A stretch of DNA of 32,000 bases, taken from NCBI RefSeq assembly GCF_000021865.1, contig NC_014034.1:2730001-2762000 (forward strand), written 5' to 3'. The stretch comes from Rhodobacter capsulatus SB 1003 (GTDB taxonomy: Bacteria > Pseudomonadota > Alphaproteobacteria > Rhodobacterales > Rhodobacteraceae). This document shows positions 24,199 to 31,080 of this stretch, one piece after another. Under the pieces are notes generated by a model. The model saw nothing but the letters and a program-made list of their open reading frames with translations. It made no database searches and was not told the origin of the DNA. Both the position numbers and the translations under genes were made by a program. The number at the start of each line of letters is the position of its first letter. Within the stretch, counting starts at the first letter, position 1.

Positions 24199-24273
<75 letters not shown>

Positions 24274-24457
24274 TCCCTCCCAAAAAATCAATTGGTTAGG
24301 CGGAGATGGTGGCTGCTGCTATCTGTTACCCCGCGTTACCCCTGCCAGAATCACCCGCCCAAGCATCCACCAAACCTCGCTATTGCTTTCGCGCACGTCT
24401 GCCGCAGGGCCGAGGTGGCGGGCGTCGCTGCAGACGTTCCCGCGCGGCTCCTACCGA

Positions 24458-24571
24458 TCAGCCGATCAGACGGTTGAATATCGCCTGCAAGCGAGCGTCG
24501 ATGGCACCCCGTTGCCCTTCCGCGATCAGGTTCAGAAACTCGACCACCTGGGCATCCCCTAAAGCAATCAT
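24458..24571 (-). CDS. Candidate 37-aa ORF
   Basis: MIALGDAQVVEFLNLIAEGQRGAIDARLQAIFNRLIG. The ATG overlaps the stop of the upstream 50-aa ORF (ATGA at 24568-24571). There is no other support. Confidence 0.25.
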   Translation of the reverse strand: MIALGDAQVVEFLNLIAEGQRGAIDARLQAIFNRLIG

Positions 24572-24720
24572 GAAGCCTCGGCCATCTTGGGCTGTGTCCC
24601 GGCACCGCGCGCACAGAGGCAGATGGATCCAGCACCATCCTGATAGGCGATGTGGCGGCTCCCGCCCGGGCGGCGGTTGAAGACACGCGCCGTCGCGCGG
24701 TCAAAGCTGACAGCTTCCAT
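24568..24720 (-). CDS. Candidate 50-aa ORF
   Basis: MEAVSFDRATARVFNRRPGGSRHIAYQDGAGSICLCARGAGTQPKMAEAS, taken from the internal ATG of track ORF 24568..24762, with AAGGA-like SD 7 nt upstream. Confidence 0.35.
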   Translation of the reverse strand: MEAVSFDRATARVFNRRPGGSRHIAYQDGAGSICLCARGAGTQPKMAEAS

Positions 24721-24777
24721 TTCTGTATCCTTGATGATGGGGAAATCGCCGCCCGACCTCACGCCGGGCGGCGGGGG

Positions 24778-25056
24778 TCAGGCGGCGCGGATGGCGACCC
24801 ACCAGCCCTTGTGATCCACGACAAGGCGGAGGGCCGGGTCAGCCTTCATCGCGCCGTTCACCGTCATCATGGCGCGATAGACGACCGTGGTCGCGCCGTT
24901 GATTTCACGGGTTGCGTATCCACCACCCCAATCGACAGTGATCCCGCGTCCATCATCGTCACGGGTGATCTGGCAGAAGTCGGGCCGGAACGCCCGGTGC
25001 GCGCCATTTAGCACGGCAAGCGCGTCATCCAAGTTTTCAACATTCGTGTAGGCCAT
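24778..25056 (-). CDS. Hypothetical protein (92 aa)
   Basis: MAYTNVENLDDALAVLNGAHRAFRPDFCQITRDDDGRGITVDWGGGYATREINGATTVVYRAMMTVNGAMKADPALRLVVDHKGWWVAIRAA. Balanced composition (N, Y, W, K, D present), unlike the shadow ORFs. GAAAGGGG SD upstream. No family recognised. Confidence 0.55.
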   Translation of the reverse strand: MAYTNVENLDDALAVLNGAHRAFRPDFCQITRDDDGRGITVDWGGGYATREINGATTVVYRAMMTVNGAMKADPALRLVVDHKGWWVAIRAA

Positions 25057-25650
25057 TGAGCGCCCCTTTCAGGGATAGGGCACTGGCGCGTGGGGGGCTC
25101 CGCCCGACCAACAAACACCAGCACCGGGTTTCGGTGTTCATGGTGAATCTGGTTCGGGCCATCTGGCGTGCTGCTCTCGGCAGGCCGCTCAAGGTTTCCG
25201 GTCCTGCCCCCGGGCCGTGGCGTGGCCCGAGGTCGGGCGCTCCTATCACAGGACAGCCTCGATATTGGCACCACCCTGCCACTTGTCAACCGCAAGATGT
25301 GGCTTGGCGCTCGGGGCGACGCGGGAACACAAAAAGAACATCGCGGGTCTTGTGCTGAGGGCTTCACGGCCCCATATTGGTGGTATGGCTCCCAGAAGGG
25401 CGGGCGCCAGTTACGTGTTTAAACTGTCAAGGCCAGCTTCCGGGGCGGTGCAGATCGCGAGTTCCATAATTCGGGCTCCTTTCGCCAGCCACGCGGGCGG
25501 CGTTGCGGCAATCCGGCAATACCACATTGCCAGGTGCGTCACAGTGTATACGACCACGTCAAAGACGAACGCACACCGCAGAACGGCGGGGGCGGAGATG
25601 TTAAGGGTCAGTGCGTTGACCCAATGCTCCGTCCCCACTCGTGGAGGGCC

Positions 25651-27123
25651 ATGCAAGACGAGTTCGACTTCACCACCAAGGACCTGAAGCACTACCCCCA
25701 TTTTGACGCCCCCCTCTCGCTGAGGGAAATCCGCCGCCTTGTCACCTCGCCAGAGAGGGTTGCGGCCAATTCGTTCTACCCGTTCTTCCTCTATGAGGAG
25801 TCATGGCAGCCGTACCGCTCTGCGGACGCAGCGAAGCCTGACAAGAAGACGCGCCCGATCCGGTACGGCGCCCGGCGCGATGCGTACATCTTCGCATTCT
25901 ACCGGCGGAAGCTGTCGCGCCTCTATGAGGCGAGGCTTCGCACCTTGGGCATTGAGGACTGCCCCATTGCCTACCGCCAAGTTTCCAAGTCGGGACTGGG
26001 CGGCGGGAAGTGCAACATAGACTTCGCCAAGGATGCGTTTGACGAGATTGACCGGCTGGGCGACTGCGTTGCCGTCGCGCTCGACATCAAGGGTTACTTT
26101 GAGAACCTCGACCACCGGCGCATCAAGCAAATCTGGTGCGACCTGCTGGGCGTGGCTGAGCTTCCGCCCGACCACTATGCAGTCTTCAAGAATATCACCA
26201 AGTACCACTTCGTTGACCAGAGGACCACCTACAGGCGGCTGGGCTACTTCGGCCTGCGGGAGCGGAACGGGGAGATGATCGACGGCTTCCTGCGGCCCTA
26301 CCGCGACATGCCCAAGCAGCTCTGCTCCAATGCTGACTTCCGGGCGAAGATATGCGGCGGGGACCCTGCCTATCCGTCCATCATCAAGAAGAACGACAAG
26401 CCCCATGGTGTGCCTCAGGGGGCGCCGATTTCAGACCTCATCGCCAACTTCTACCTTTTGGAGTTCGACGTGGTCATGGCGGCCTATGCTCGCGCCCGGG
26501 GTGGGCGCTACATGCGCTACTCTGACGACATCCTCCTGATCCTGCCCGGGGGTGCCAGCGAGGCCAGCGCCGCCGTCGCCTTCGCCACGGCGGAGATGCT
26601 GAACCACGGCCCCGAGTTGCGGATCAAGGACAGCAAGACCTGCGTGGCACAGTTTGAGCGTGTTGCGGGGGCGCTGCGCTTCCAACACCTCGCGCAGCGC
26701 CCGGACGAACCCGCCAAGAATGGCTTTGAGTACCTTGGCTTCCGCTACGATGGGCGCTGCGTTTATGTGCGCGACAGCACCATTTCCCGCTTCTTCGGGA
26801 AGGTCGCCGGGGCGGCCAAACGGGACGGGCGGCGGCATGTGGAGGCAAACCCGGCGATGGATGCCGGGGACCTGATTCGTGCGTTCGACTTCTCTCTGTT
26901 CTCGCAGCGCTTCAGTCGCGTGAAGAAGGAGAAGCTGACAGACGACTACCGCAGTTGGACGTTCTACTCATACCTCAAGCGCTCGGCAGAGGCGTTCGGC
27001 CCGAAGGGCGACCGCATCTTGAAGCAGGCTCGGGGCTTTGATGACTTCATGAAGGCAAGGGTTTCCGGGGCCATCGTCACGGCGGCAGCCAAACGCAAAG
27101 CGCCCGCCAAAACCGCTGCTTGA
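25651..27123 (+). CDS. Stand-alone reverse transcriptase, Abi/UG (defence-associated RT)-like
   Basis: RT motifs in order: KTRPIRYGARRDAYIFAFY, VALDIKGYFENLDH (motif A Asp), GVPQGAPISDLIANFYLLEFD (motif B), MRYSDDILLILPG (YxDD), LRIKDSKT, FEYLGFRY. They are followed by a ~130-aa C-terminal extension that ends in a K/A-rich tail. The start is set at ATG 25651 (GGAGGG SD); the track GTG at 25534 and ATG at 25624 are alternatives. Confidence 0.9.
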   Translation: MQDEFDFTTKDLKHYPHFDAPLSLREIRRLVTSPERVAANSFYPFFLYEESWQPYRSADAAKPDKKTRPIRYGARRDAYIFAFYRRKLSRLYEARLRTLGIEDCPIAYRQVSKSGLGGGKCNIDFAKDAFDEIDRLGDCVAVALDIKGYFENLDHRRIKQIWCDLLGVAELPPDHYAVFKNITKYHFVDQRTTYRRLGYFGLRERNGEMIDGFLRPYRDMPKQLCSNADFRAKICGGDPAYPSIIKKNDKPHGVPQGAPISDLIANFYLLEFDVVMAAYARARGGRYMRYSDDILLILPGGASEASAAVAFATAEMLNHGPELRIKDSKTCVAQFERVAGALRFQHLAQRPDEPAKNGFEYLGFRYDGRCVYVRDSTISRFFGKVAGAAKRDGRRHVEANPAMDAGDLIRAFDFSLFSQRFSRVKKEKLTDDYRSWTFYSYLKRSAEAFGPKGDRILKQARGFDDFMKARVSGAIVTAAAKRKAPAKTAA

Positions 27124-27691
27124 GCGGCTCCCAGCAGGCGCCTTCCGTCCTAGCTTCCCGTCTTAGGAGCCTCGTGGGCTGCAAGTCTTTGATTTCTTGG
27201 CTCCGGCGGTAGGCGCGGAGGGATTAAACCCAACTCGGCAGAATTGCCGATTAGTCCTTTAATATCAGGGCTTAAGCTGACCGCCCGTCCAGCCCGGCCA
27301 TCATGCGTGTGTGCCTGACGTGCTTCGATTGTGTGCCTAGACTAGGCCGCCCGCACGGCAAGCGCCAGCCGCAAAAGCGATCAGGGCCGCATATTTTGGC
27401 GGAAAAATCCGAGCCACCACCTCGACCGAAGTGCAGCCGCGCAGCCCCCCCCCGGTGGCCGCCCGCCCTGGGCCCGTTCAGGTCGCCCAGCACGCTCCCG
27501 AGGCCGCCCCAGCGCCGCCCCTCCCGCCACCCCGGCACCTCTCCCGGTGCAGCCAAGGGCACCCAAATAGGCGTCCCTACTGCATGGGTGTCCGCCTCCC
27601 GGCTCAGTCAATTTACATTCACAACGTTCGTTGACATTTGATATTTGTTGCCCCACCTTGGTTCCGACAGATCAAACAGGGGGCCGCAGCC

Positions 27692-28357
27692 GTGCGCCAG
27701 TTCGTTATCTACCGCCGTGTCAGCACCGAAGAACAAGGCCGCTCCGGGCTAGGGCTTGAGGCCCAGAGCCGAGACGTTGACCTTTACCTTGCCAACTATG
27801 CCGAGACGCCCTTTGAGGTTCTGGGCGAGTTCCTTGACGTGACCTCGGGGCGGGACAACGACAGGCCAGAGTTGAACAAGGCGCTGGACCTGTGCCGCCG
27901 CACCGGGGCCGAATTGCTGGTCGCCAAGCTTGACCGCCTCTCCCGCCGCGTGTCCTTCATCGCCGCGCTTATGGATGATCCCAAGGTGAAGCTGCGGGTG
28001 GCCTCCATGCCGAACGCGGACAAGTTCCAGCTTCATATCTATGCCGCGCTGGCGGAACAGGAACGGGACTTCATCTCCCTGCGCACCAAGGCCGCGCTTG
28101 CCGAGGCGAAGGCCCGGGGTCAGAAGCTAGGAGGGCTGCGTGATGCCACCGGCAAGCGCAATGAGGCTATCCAGCGGGACGCCCGCAGCTTTGCCGAACG
28201 GGTGCGCCCGATAGTGCAGCCCATGCGCGCCTCCGGGGCCACCTTGGCGCAGATCGCAGAGGCCCTTGGCGGGGCTGGCATCGCGACACCGCGGGGCGGG
28301 GCGTGGACGGCAACGCAGGTCAAGCGGGTGCTGGACCGGCTGGATAGTGTTGCATAA
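27692..28357 (+). CDS. Small serine recombinase (resolvase/invertase family) with C-terminal HTH
   Basis: Start set at GTG 27692 (AGGGGG 8 nt upstream), giving VRQFVIYRRVSTEEQ with the nucleophile Ser context. Also LLVAKLDRLSRR and a C-terminal ATLAQIAEALGGAGIATPRGGAWTATQVKRVL HTH-like segment. Confidence 0.9.
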   Translation: MRQFVIYRRVSTEEQGRSGLGLEAQSRDVDLYLANYAETPFEVLGEFLDVTSGRDNDRPELNKALDLCRRTGAELLVAKLDRLSRRVSFIAALMDDPKVKLRVASMPNADKFQLHIYAALAEQERDFISLRTKAALAEAKARGQKLGGLRDATGKRNEAIQRDARSFAERVRPIVQPMRASGATLAQIAEALGGAGIATPRGGAWTATQVKRVLDRLDSVA

Positions 28358-28526
28358 ATGTCACTCACCGTCACCCTATCTGTGTGTTTTCTCCGATTGT
28401 TTCAGCGGCAGCTTTTGTGACCACGCGACAACCCCCTGAGGCAGCGTAAGAAGTCACAGAAAGCTGCGCCCATATGTGCCCATTGCGGGATTATAACGTG
28501 ATTTCCTTAGGTTGCACCGCGACGTT

Positions 28527-28826
28527 ATGAAAGGGACACGTCAACAAACCGCAAGGGACACCACCGTGACAGCCGCCATAACCCACGCCATGGGCCTGTT
28601 CGAACAAGCCAAGGACCACGGCGTAACCCCCTATGGATCACCTAGCGCACACCGCGCCTTGGCAGCGTGTATCCAATCCTCCGGCCACCTCCTGACCATT
28701 GCCGAGGAAGTCGCGGCGGGGCGGCTGGATGGAGACATTGCGCGTCAGTTTCTGCGCGCCGCCGCCGTCTCGTTGCCTAGGGCCATGAAGGCCGTCGAAA
28801 CCCTCCAGAACGCCGCCAAGCACTGA
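28527..28826 (+). CDS. Hypothetical protein (~99 aa; start uncertain)
   Basis: Track ORF 28512..28826. Helical, normal composition (GLFEQAKDHGVTPYGSPSAHRALAACIQSSGHLLTIAEEVAAGRLDGDIARQFL). Alternative GTG start at 28566 after AAGGGA. Confidence 0.5.
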   Translation: MKGTRQQTARDTTVTAAITHAMGLFEQAKDHGVTPYGSPSAHRALAACIQSSGHLLTIAEEVAAGRLDGDIARQFLRAAAVSLPRAMKAVETLQNAAKH

Positions 28827-28851
28827 CACAGCCAACCGATAGGAAACCGCC

Positions 28852-29199
28852 ATGACCACCACCACGACCCCTGAAGCCGCCACCCTGAACGCCCTTCTGG
28901 CCGCTGCCGGGGACCGCCTTGACCAGATCGCAGGGGAACACCGCCTGAGCCGCGAACAGATCGTCGCCATGAACACCGCCCGCCTTACCGCTGAGTTTCT
29001 CTATGACCTTGCCGAGGGGTTTGCGCGGGGTGAGGCGGCAGCACCTATGCCCCGCAGCCCAGCAATGCCGCTTTCCGCCCGCATGGTCATGGCGAAGCTT
29101 GCAGAGCTGCAATTCGGCTGCGGCGTCCAGATCGCCCCCGACGCGGCGCAATGGCAGGGCCGGGACCATGCCAAGGGGCCGTTTGACGAAGCGGCGTAA
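28852..29199 (+). CDS. Hypothetical protein (115 aa)
   Basis: AGGAAAC SD 6 nt upstream of the ATG, normal composition, followed by a strong terminator. Confidence 0.6.
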   Translation: MTTTTTPEAATLNALLAAAGDRLDQIAGEHRLSREQIVAMNTARLTAEFLYDLAEGFARGEAAAPMPRSPAMPLSARMVMAKLAELQFGCGVQIAPDAAQWQGRDHAKGPFDEAA

Positions 29200-29233
29200 G
29201 ATCGCCCCTCCGGCATCTATCAGAGCAACAAGA

Positions 29234-29262
29234 GGCCCTGCTTCGGCGGGGCCTTCTGCTTT
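29234..29262 (+). terminator. Rho-independent terminator with UUCG tetraloop
   Basis: GGCCCTGC-TTCG-GCGGGGCC (8-bp stem including one G-U pair) followed by TTCTGCTTT, 35 nt after the stop of the 115-aa ORF. Confidence 0.65.
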
Positions 29263-29286
29263 CCGCACGGGCCACGGCTAGCGTCT

Positions 29287-29441
29287 CCCATTCAAGTTGA
29301 AGGGGTGCCGAGGGGCATTTACCCCGCAAAGTTTGCGGGGTGAACACCCAACGAAATTCGTGGGGTGCGCATGTCCTCAACTTGAGGACTTACAGAAGCG
29401 CGAAATTCGCTCTTCCGTCTGCCCCCAGAAAGTTTCTGGGG
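29287..29441. repeat. Phased array of six different odd-length palindromes
   Basis: CCCATTCAA-G-TTGAAGGGG (29287-29305, 1 mismatch); CCCCGCAAA-G-TTTGCGGGG (29322-29340, perfect); CACCCAACGAA-A-TTCGTGGGGTG (29345-29367, 1 mismatch); GTCCTCAA-C-TTGAGGAC (29373-29389, perfect); GAAGCGCGAA-A-TTCGCTCTTC (29395-29415, 1 mismatch); CCCCAGAAA-G-TTTCTGGGG (29423-29441, perfect). Centres are at 29296, 29331, 29356, 29381, 29405 and 29432. Confidence 0.75.
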
Positions 29442-29581
29442 AGGGAAGGCGGGCGGGCGGCGATCAAGCGCAATGACGCTGCGTTTGGTCACATGTCCCC
29501 TACGGGGGCCGTCCCCCCGAGGACGTAACCTTTACTCCGATTAAAACTATCCGACGAGACGGCGCTTCCCCCAAAAGTATT

Positions 29582-29759
29582 GGTGGGAAATTCCCGCCGC
29601 TTCCTCAATGGCGACGAGGTGAGTGAGATTTCTCGCTCCGATCTTGGAACAGGGTCTCAAATTGAGATCATGTTCCCGGCCGGGTATCGACACAGCCTCC
29701 GGTCTAACGTCAAAACTTCTGACGTTAGCTTCCCGAACACCCTGAAAATTTTTCAGGGT
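29582..29759. repeat. Second cluster of palindromes / inverted repeats
   Basis: GGTGGGAA-A-TTCCCGCC (29582-29598, 1 mismatch); TCTCAA-A-TTGAGA (29655-29667); CCCGGCCGGG (29674-29683); CTAACGTCA-aaacttc-TGACGTTAG (29704-29728, perfect 9-bp arms); ACCCTGAAAA-T-TTTTCAGGGT (29739-29759, perfect 21-bp palindrome). Confidence 0.7.
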
Positions 29760-29771
29760 AAGTGCGTCCAC

Positions 29772-29852
29772 ACGGTCAACCTCGTCTCGGAAAGCGGCCT
29801 CTACAAGCTCATCCTCCGCGCCCAGAGGTCCGGCCCTGAACCCTCGGAGTTT
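29772..29852 (+). pseudogene. BRO-N / antirepressor-like domain remnant
   Basis: Frame of track ORF 29580..29975 reads TVNLVSESGLYKLILRAQRSGPEPSEF. This matches the conserved ...SESGLYxLILRSxKPEAxxF core of phage BRO-N domains. The expected downstream WV..EVLP.IRK segment is absent in all frames, and the upstream part is occupied by palindromes. Confidence 0.35.
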
Positions 29853-30000
29853 TCGAGGGTATCGTCGGGAGAAGGTGGCGACGGGCGCAAGCCCGCAGAT
29901 GCTTCAAATACGCCCGCACAGCGCCGTCCTCTCCCGCCCCATATCCCCCTAGGGGAAAACGGAAGGCGCGCCTAGGGGCAATCTTTGAGCCTCTCAGGGT

Positions 30001-30092
30001 CACCCATTTAGGACGCACTACAGGAACAGTCCACCCATTTAGGACGTACCACAGGAGCGGGCCAGTCCGTCCAATTTCCCCTTACTACAGGA
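30001..30092 (+). repeat. Tandem 25-bp direct repeats (two good copies plus one degenerate) upstream of the 307-aa ORF
   Basis: CACCCATTTAGGACGCACTACAGGA (30001-30025) and CACCCATTTAGGACGTACCACAGGA (30032-30056) are 23/25 identical with a 31-bp period. The degenerate third copy at 30068-30092 matches 16/25 and shares the terminal ACTACAGGA. AGTCCGTCC also occurs twice (30064-30072, 30100-30108). Confidence 0.7.
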
Positions 30093-30156
30093 CACCCCAA
30101 GTCCGTCCCCCTCATCCCGTCAAACAACATCAACAATCCCAAGAGGAAACGACACA

Positions 30157-31080
30157 ATGAGCCAGAACACCATCCACCTTACCGAGGCCGAGGCCGTCCG
30201 CATGGCCGATGAAGCCGCCGCCGCCCGCCGCAGCACACCTTACAACGGCTTCCAACCTGCCGCCATCACCTCCGACCGTCACGAAGTCATCATCCGGGGC
30301 GGTCAAGTTGCCGAGGTCAAGAGCGCCAGCAAGACGCTGGGCGTCCCGACCGGCTATGCCGAACATCACCGCCCCGGCTTCATCCGCATTCCCGGCGCCG
30401 GTGAGACGACGATTGCCGCCGCCAAAGCTGCCGGGTTCTTGCCGCATACCTGGCAGGAGGGCGATAAGCTCCCTTTTGACGACGCCCCCAAAGGTCCGCA
30501 ATCGGACCCCCAGCGGGGCAGCGACAAGGCCACTGAGGCGGCCGAAGACAAGCCGCAGGAACGCACCGTTGCAGAGCACCGGGCCAAGGTCGCCGGGGAC
30601 ATTCTGGACCGTGCCGACAAGGCGCTGGGCGCAGAGGTGACGGACAAATACCTGAGCGATGCAGTCGAGACGGGGGTTATCCCCGAGGAAGGACTTCCCG
30701 AAGGTTTCACGCCGGTCATGGTGAAACAGGTCTACCAAGGATACGTCGCCCAAGCTGACGCAGTGCTGGCCCCCGTGGGCGCCTCCGTGGCGTTGCTGCA
30801 GGACATGCTGACCGATGACGAGCTTCGCCAAGCGCGCCATCATACCTTGTCCAAGGACAGCGACAGCCTTGCGGACCTCGGACGGGCTGCGGTCAACCGC
30901 CTCGCCATGCTGCCCAAGACCGACCCCGAGGGCTTCATGCAGATGGTCGCGGACATGCCCGCCGCCGAGCGCAAGTGCATCGACTTCGACAAGAAGCGCG
31001 GGGAATGGCTGGTCAAGATCCCCGGCAAGCCGACCATGAGTTACGGCGCTGCGGTCCGCATGGCCCTTGTCCGCGTCTGA
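30157..31080 (+). CDS. Hypothetical protein (307 aa), phage/island-borne
   Basis: AGAGGAAAC SD 7 nt upstream of the ATG and balanced composition. The antisense ORF 30130..31119 is G/R/A-rich shadow. No family recognised. Confidence 0.7.
   Translation: MSQNTIHLTEAEAVRMADEAAAARRSTPYNGFQPAAITSDRHEVIIRGGQVAEVKSASKTLGVPTGYAEHHRPGFIRIPGAGETTIAAAKAAGFLPHTWQEGDKLPFDDAPKGPQSDPQRGSDKATEAAEDKPQERTVAEHRAKVAGDILDRADKALGAEVTDKYLSDAVETGVIPEEGLPEGFTPVMVKQVYQGYVAQADAVLAPVGASVALLQDMLTDDELRQARHHTLSKDSDSLADLGRAAVNRLAMLPKTDPEGFMQMVADMPAAERKCIDFDKKRGEWLVKIPGKPTMSYGAAVRMALVRV

Follow-up and report, generated by a model that had tools for sequence, protein, structure and literature searches.

The locus analysed here raises the question of what lies in the 594 nt (25057-25650) that separate a divergent 92-aa ORF from a reverse transcriptase (RT) gene in Rhodobacter capsulatus SB 1003. 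All positions are those of the window, i.e. the whole 32,000-nt stretch of NC_014034.1 (2,730,001 to 2,762,000, forward strand) that was analysed. An earlier note, made from the letters of the window, had proposed the whole interval as a candidate RT-associated non-coding RNA (ncRNA), of the kind known from retrons and DRT2/DRT9-type systems, in which the template RNA immediately precedes the RT on the same strand. Our comparison with homologous loci led us to a narrower answer: ~25385-25644 very probably encodes the ncRNA of a DRT2 anti-phage system, the enzyme of which is the RT encoded immediately downstream.

The DRT2 system of Klebsiella pneumoniae consists of an RT, a 281-nt ncRNA and neo (Tang et al. 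2024, doi 10.1101/2024.05.08.593200; Wilkinson et al. 2024, PMC12039810; PDB 9C0I/9C0J). As published, the DRT2 RNA runs from a 5' handle through the template to a 3' part that contains a pseudoknot. In this tested system, neo is antisense to the RNA, and its -35 and -10 boxes lie near opposite ends of the template, being brought into order only across the junction of two repeats. The RT gene of the window is the following.

25651-27123, plus strand: predicted DRT2 reverse transcriptase, 490 aa, with a YSDD active-site box

The PADLOC Drt2 profile PDLC03757 (UG2/Drt2 family) matched this ORF with E 6.1e-129, whereas every other RT class in PADLOC gave E values of 1e-9 to 1e-18, the retron RT profiles scoring 4e-12 to 8e-10 and RT_UG17 2e-17. 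Its best match among solved structures was the Klebsiella DRT2 enzyme (PDB 9C0I, E 2.1e-62, residues 13-435), and Pfam recognised the generic RVT_1 domain only. On these matches we assign the ORF as a DRT2 enzyme. One could still suppose that the RNA upstream serves as the template of another RT mechanism, such as a retron msr/msd RNA, the homopolymer template of DRT9 or the short telomere-like repeats of DRT10, since all those systems have an ncRNA adjoining the RT and the weaker PADLOC matches include retron and other UG-type RTs. We give this reading the lowest probability of all the alternatives considered, close to nil: the gap between the Drt2 profile and the other RT classes speaks against it, as does the solved-structure match to DRT2 itself, and the coding and promoter signature of the template described below has no role in those systems. 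The retron-type RT with an msr/msd RNA that makes a retron was not found at the locus. The repeat synthesis of the DRT10/telomerase type is alike in having an RT and an ncRNA in which a stem precedes the template and a pseudoknot follows; the RT realigns again and again on short repeats at either side of the template and so makes tandem-repeat DNA (PMC12632851). DRT10 differs, however, in its short non-coding repeats, protein-primed synthesis and SLATT effector, none of which was seen at this locus, and in its RT family (RT_UG17, E 2e-17, against 6e-129 for Drt2 with the RT here).

We then return to the DRT2 reading and to the extent of its RNA. A protein search with the RT gave 926 homologs, mostly from Rhodobacterales; 20 of them were aligned, a search with this alignment retrieved 79 genomic loci, and conservation was mapped by BLAST comparison of the 800-nt regions that precede the RT genes. 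Among close homologs 25322-25650 was 76-90% identical, and 25408-25650 could be aligned down to RT homologs of ~60% identity. The remainder, 25057-25321, found matches in the upstream regions of two Pseudooceanicola loci only, one of which (L003) matched the whole of it at 74% and the other (L004) a 58-nt stretch, 25198-25255. Judged by these alignments, 25057-25349 is essentially unconserved among homologous loci. The 594-nt candidate of the earlier note does contain a template ncRNA, but the RNA fills only the last ~260 nt; the predicted functional RNA is only part of the flagged leader, and the coordinates are better narrowed to ~25350-25650.

All the motifs that the earlier note had listed were found where it had placed them: AACACC (25114-19) with GGTGTT (25133-38), GTCCTG (25201-06) with CAGGAC (25249-54) enclosing GCCCG (25225-29) with CGGGC (25234-38), GGCAAT (25515-20) with ATTGCC (25526-31), GGGTCA (25605-10) with TGACCC (25617-22), and an A-rich patch at 25323-46. 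Their meaning differs, however. The third and fourth stems (25515-31 and 25605-22) are the covarying helices 9 and 13 of the RNA, whereas the first two (25114-38 and 25201-54) are no part of the conserved element, because 25057-25321 is matched only by the two Pseudooceanicola loci. A terminator-like hairpin on the minus strand (25122-25136) coincides with the stem at 25114-38; one such hairpin was found, and 0.7 are expected by chance.

An alignment of 23 sequences gave a consensus structure of 51 pairs, from which a covariance model, R1, was built. The RNA and its parts are as follows.

25385-25644, plus strand: putative DRT2 non-coding RNA, ~260 nt, 301 bits with model R1; the 5' end is predicted
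25386-25409, plus strand: P1, 5' hairpin, folding 25386-93 with 25402-09 in the window; counterpart of the Klebsiella "5' handle"
25414-25418, plus strand: left arm of the basal stem (helix 1), CGTGT, pairing with 25548-52
25548-25552, plus strand: right arm of the basal stem (helix 1), ATACG (ACACG in most homologs)
25515-25531, plus strand: hairpin within the template (helix 9), GGCAAT/ATTGCC
25568-25574, plus strand: 5' strand of the pseudoknot, AACGCAC, pairing over 7 bp with the hairpin loop GTGCGTT at 25611-17
25576-25644, plus strand: 3' scaffold, with helices 25576-79/25641-44, 25588-97/25627-36 and 25605-08/25619-22 (helices 10, 12 and 13)

R1 matched at 40 loci (the window and 39 others, a count that overstates independence as the homologs are mutually related), always on the strand of the RT and always ending at the RT start. 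The covariation among homologous upstream regions that the earlier note had proposed as a check was indeed found: in a 43-row alignment, the fitting of which to the model favours the structure in such counts, compensatory changes occurred in 40 of the 51 pairs, 90.7% of the cells were paired against 39-54% when the partners were slid, and none of 500 shuffles reached the observed values. P1 has 5-8 bp, 7 bp in most cases, and is found in nearly all 40 homologs with many differing arm sequences. The outermost pair of the basal stem appears as C-G, U-A and A-U across homologs; a rival basal stem, ACGTG/CACGT, was rejected, the change in L013 giving it no support. Helix 9 showed compensatory changes in all six of its pairs with 91.7% of the cells paired, and helices 10, 12 and 13 were 92-99% paired with compensatory changes in 16 of 18 pairs. 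Helix 13 is the GGGTCA/TGACCC hairpin, and its loop (25611-17) forms the pseudoknot, for which 98.9% of the cells were paired against 13-55% when slid and four of the seven pairs had compensatory changes. The template is in this way flanked by the 5' hairpin and a stem on one side and by the pseudoknot on the other. The 3' end of the RNA lies at or past the last covarying helix and overlaps the Shine-Dalgarno sequence of the RT.

Folding-energy z-scores were -1.20 for the whole 594 nt, -1.09 for 25385-25645 and -1.74 for 25057-25349, all within chance. The folding of the single sequence is no better than that of shuffled ones, and the case therefore rests on the comparison with other loci. An Rfam search of the interval returned no family, retron RNA included, its sole match being a chance CRISPR-repeat (E 0.51).

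Some more distant loci behaved differently. At 37-53% RT identity, the upstream regions of L030, L034, L036, L040, L041, L043, L044, L047, L048, L050, L051 and L053 gave no R1 match, their RNAs being either too diverged or different, and those of L054 and L042 gave weak matches only. R1 did not detect the distant DRT2 loci L058-L074 (28-33% RT identity). At a Pseudomonadales locus (L019:888-2990) the RNA is broken in two: the 5' part, matched weakly by the model at 25.9 bits, is separated from the 3' scaffold downstream by ~1.85 kb. Between them stands an ORF of 393 aa that begins like a zinc finger, suggestive of a mobile element having inserted into the RNA gene.

A conserved, structured block ending at the start of a gene could also be a 5' leader of the RT mRNA and nothing else, exerting translational or attenuation control without any template. 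The last helix does overlap the RT Shine-Dalgarno (25641-47), and in Klebsiella the RNA and RT also share one promoter; for the latter reason the block could be leader and template at once. What decides between a mere leader and a template is the middle part of the RNA, in which the following features were recognised.

25417-25557, plus strand: predicted template region, 141 nt in this analysis (25419-25562, 144 nt, in Table S1 of Tang et al.)
25425-25430, minus strand: putative neo -35 box, TTGACA, in 38 of 39 homologs; functional only across the repeat junction
25543-25548, minus strand: putative neo -10 box, TACACT (TATACT in most homologs), TAnnnT in 37 of 39 homologs
25465-25481, minus strand: putative neo ribosome-binding site AAGGAG (25476-81) with ATG (25465-67), conserved
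25411-25413, minus strand: stop codon TAA closing the antisense frame; TAA or TGA there in 20 of 24 close homologs

Two GT dinucleotides, 25417-18 and 25558-59, are both invariant and stand 141 nt apart. The GT-to-GT distance is 129, 132, 138, 141 or 144 nt in 38 of 39 homologs, all multiples of 3, and in those 38 exactly one frame is open in the joined reverse complement. The differences in length map to the hairpins at 25485-25515, upstream of the neo ribosome-binding site; a length-variable part in that place would be translated only in joined repeats, i.e. in a concatemer. The lone exception, L032, has a 136-nt template and no open antisense frame, and is a natural negative control for the frame constraint. 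L032 (2732-4451) is a decayed DRT2 locus with a frameshifted RT that carries stops in all three frames. Among 24 close homologs the antisense frame is stop-free from 25421 to ~25600 while the other two frames carry variable stops, it being understood that high G+C content makes open frames commoner. Variability at third codon positions was slightly raised (0.65 against 0.52 and 0.57) and was not relied on as coding evidence.

The two promoter boxes fall into the same scheme. When the template was joined in silico at the GT/GT junction, the -10 came exactly 17 nt after the -35, giving a predicted sigma-70 promoter, TTGACA-N17-TAnnnT, in 37 of 39 homologs, whereas a promoter scan of the linear sequence found no neo promoter. 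The -35 has the place and the codon phase (Leu-Asp) that it has in the Klebsiella-type rows of Table S1. In 36 of 39 homologs a GGAG-type site is followed after 4-10 nt by an in-frame ATG, replaced in a few of them by GTG or TTG. The genomic stop at 25411-13 lies just outside the template and would therefore be skipped in repeat DNA. A leader alone leaves unexplained why just one antisense frame is open, why template lengths are always divisible by 3, why TTGACA and TAnnnT are invariant on the strand opposite the RNA, and why that strand has a ribosome-binding site with its ATG. We regard it as very unlikely that the block is nothing but a leader.

The same antisense signals could belong to an ordinary small gene on the minus strand, either the 96-codon ORF 25411-25701 or an 18-codon ORF that begins with the ATG at 25467 and stops at 25411. 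The 96-aa ORF is indeed present in the ORF listing, every close homolog keeps the frame open, and the ATG at 25465-67 has a good ribosome-binding site in front of it. The far ATG, however, falls within the RT gene, the open stretch is shorter in L057, L014, L012 and L015 (186-252 nt), and just 18 codons separate the conserved ribosome-binding site from the stop, while the constraint on frame and length reaches ~90 nt upstream of that site. Moreover, in the linear genome the -10 is 112 nt from the -35 and on its wrong side, and thus there is no usable promoter. An ordinary small gene is in our judgment still more improbable than a mere leader. The earlier note had held that none of the ORFs here looks coding, which is true for ordinary genes, but the antisense strand of 25417-25557 is under reading-frame constraint. 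It had also regarded a conserved small protein gene in place of the RNA as grounds for abandoning the proposal. The antisense proto-gene is the only coding signal and is one that the DRT2 mechanism requires; hence no conserved small protein gene in the ordinary sense takes the place of the RNA. Its central proposal, a template ncRNA immediately in front of the RT and on its strand, is borne out by the DRT2 class of the RT, the R1 matches at 40 loci, the covariation and the neo signature together.

The ncRNA and RT are likely to be transcribed from the following elements.

25350-25378, plus strand: predicted ncRNA-RT promoter, -35 TTGTGC (25350-55), 17-nt spacer, -10 CATATT (25373-78)
25326-25339, plus strand: A-rich tract resembling an UP element, just upstream of the -35; core of the A-rich patch 25323-46

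In most loci, distant ones included, a CTTG element and a (C/T)ATAT-like box, 17 nt apart, precede the 5' hairpin by a constant distance. The promoter was not called by a strict consensus scan because only 8 of 12 positions match. From the position of this promoter, the transcript would start near 25385. In close homologs the A-rich tract is kept in a GAACGAAAAAAGAAC-like form, and distant homologs are A/T-rich there; it is the position of the tract only that suggests an UP-element role.

By analogy with the tested Klebsiella system, the RT would bind the RNA, the template of which would be copied into a repeated, "never-ending" toxic gene, and the resulting tandem-repeat DNA would turn double-stranded upon phage infection. 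A TTGACA-N17-TACACT promoter would arise at each repeat junction, and the AAGGAG/ATG site would lead to translation into a stop-less repeat protein Neo, with 47 residues per repeat, that arrests the cell. The likeness to Klebsiella DRT2 begins with the RT, which is homologous over nearly its full length. The RNA likewise immediately precedes the RT on its strand, its parts follow one another in the same order (5' hairpin, stem, template, pseudoknot, scaffold), and the antisense neo has a 17-nt promoter spacing across the junction and a repeat length that is a multiple of 3. There are also differences: the RT has 490 aa and YSDD here against 425 aa and YCDD in Klebsiella, the predicted repeat is 141 nt (or 144) against 111-129 nt, the scaffold after the template is ~85 nt against ~130 nt, and the two template ends carry GU (CGU in a sister group) where Klebsiella has the ACA-1/ACA-2 pair.

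The last difference bears on how the template is jumped. ACA-1/ACA-2 trinucleotides flanking the template were absent at the locus and among the homologs compared. The bases common to both template ends are GU only in the window and 2-5 nt in homologs, for example CGU in the sister group, GUU, UGUA in L008, in which both copies have changed together, and UGUUU in L031. With no ACA repeats and only GU shared in the window, the position that we infer for the junction within the template region is uncertain, the choice being between 141 and 144 nt. Other junctions were tried and rejected. ACGT/ACGT (143 nt) is well conserved but breaks the frame and gives a promoter spacing of 19-21 nt, and ACG/ACG (156 nt) has an unconserved left copy and a spacing of 32 nt. 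GTC/GTC (132 nt) cuts the -35 and TAC/TAC (135 nt) cuts the -10. CAG-repeat junctions would place the genomic stop inside the unit, and AAGG (174 nt) and GTT (198 nt) both enter the scaffold and include a stop in L057.

The locus is already in a published catalogue. Table S1 of Tang et al. (2024) lists Rhodobacter capsulatus B10 with the RT WP_023925646.1 and a Neo marked as identified; its putative ncRNA corresponds to 25390-25625, and its putative cDNA, of 144 nt, to 25419-25562 read as the reverse complement. Compared by eye, the RT of the window is identical to WP_023925646.1 over the 400 residues printed there, and the RT, the RNA sequence and the antisense frame of the entry are the same as at this locus. 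Both the kind of system, described in 2024, and this instance of it are therefore already known, and no new kind of system is proposed here. Our literature search for transcript, cDNA or phenotype data on the R. capsulatus DRT2 system found no paper.

The two descriptions differ in their boundaries. The RNA of Table S1 begins within the 5' hairpin, losing its first bases, and ends before the 3' arms of two helices that covary (25627-36 and 25641-44); the wider boundaries predicted here, 25386 to 25644, are new. With the 144-nt unit the -10 would stand 20 nt from the -35 in most homologs and no bases would be shared between the ends, whereas the 141-nt unit has the 17-nt spacing and 2-5 shared bases. 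Neo of Table S1 starts at an earlier, unconserved ATG, whereas the ATG behind the ribosome-binding site is conserved. New as well is a repeat of likely 141 nt rather than 144 nt, with a GU repeat replacing the ACA repeats. Taken as a statement on the whole alphaproteobacterial DRT2 subclade, namely that it jumps templates via the invariant GU and RNA structure without an ACA/ACA pair and with a repeat of 141 nt (47 residues) rather than 144 nt, this is in our estimate an evenly balanced proposition. If GU-based jumping were true, the alignment signal for repeat addition would be flexible in length within DRT2. The neo model in addition gains independent comparative support from a distant, G+C-rich clade, and the corrected RNA boundaries, the conserved RNA promoter and the alternative repeat junction are further additions of this analysis.

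Finally, we analyzed the surroundings of the cassette. A lower-G+C island (24199-30600) begins at the 3' end of tRNA-Thr (24199-24273), where G+C falls from ~0.68 to ~0.61, and holds the DRT2 cassette together with a serine recombinase gene (27638-28357). Downstream, the end of tRNA-Thr was not found again as a direct repeat. L010 has a recombinase of 68% identity, encoded ~1.8 kb downstream of its DRT2 gene and on the other strand. The RT is present in 11 of 201 sampled genomes of the family and absent from the other sampled species of the same genus, a patchy distribution that fits a mobile defence gene. The divergent 92-aa ORF (24778-25056, minus strand) is a real but rare hypothetical protein, in which Pfam recognised no domain and of which the homologs form four other clusters, at 71-77% identity. 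It was considered as a part of the system and rejected; none of its homologs, which form only those four clusters, lies beside any other DRT2 locus, so that it is a neighbour and not a partner. Upstream of the cassette, a 64-aa ORF (24568-24762, minus strand) has 60-72% identical matches upstream of DRT2 in L003 and L049, and may travel with the DRT2 cassette.
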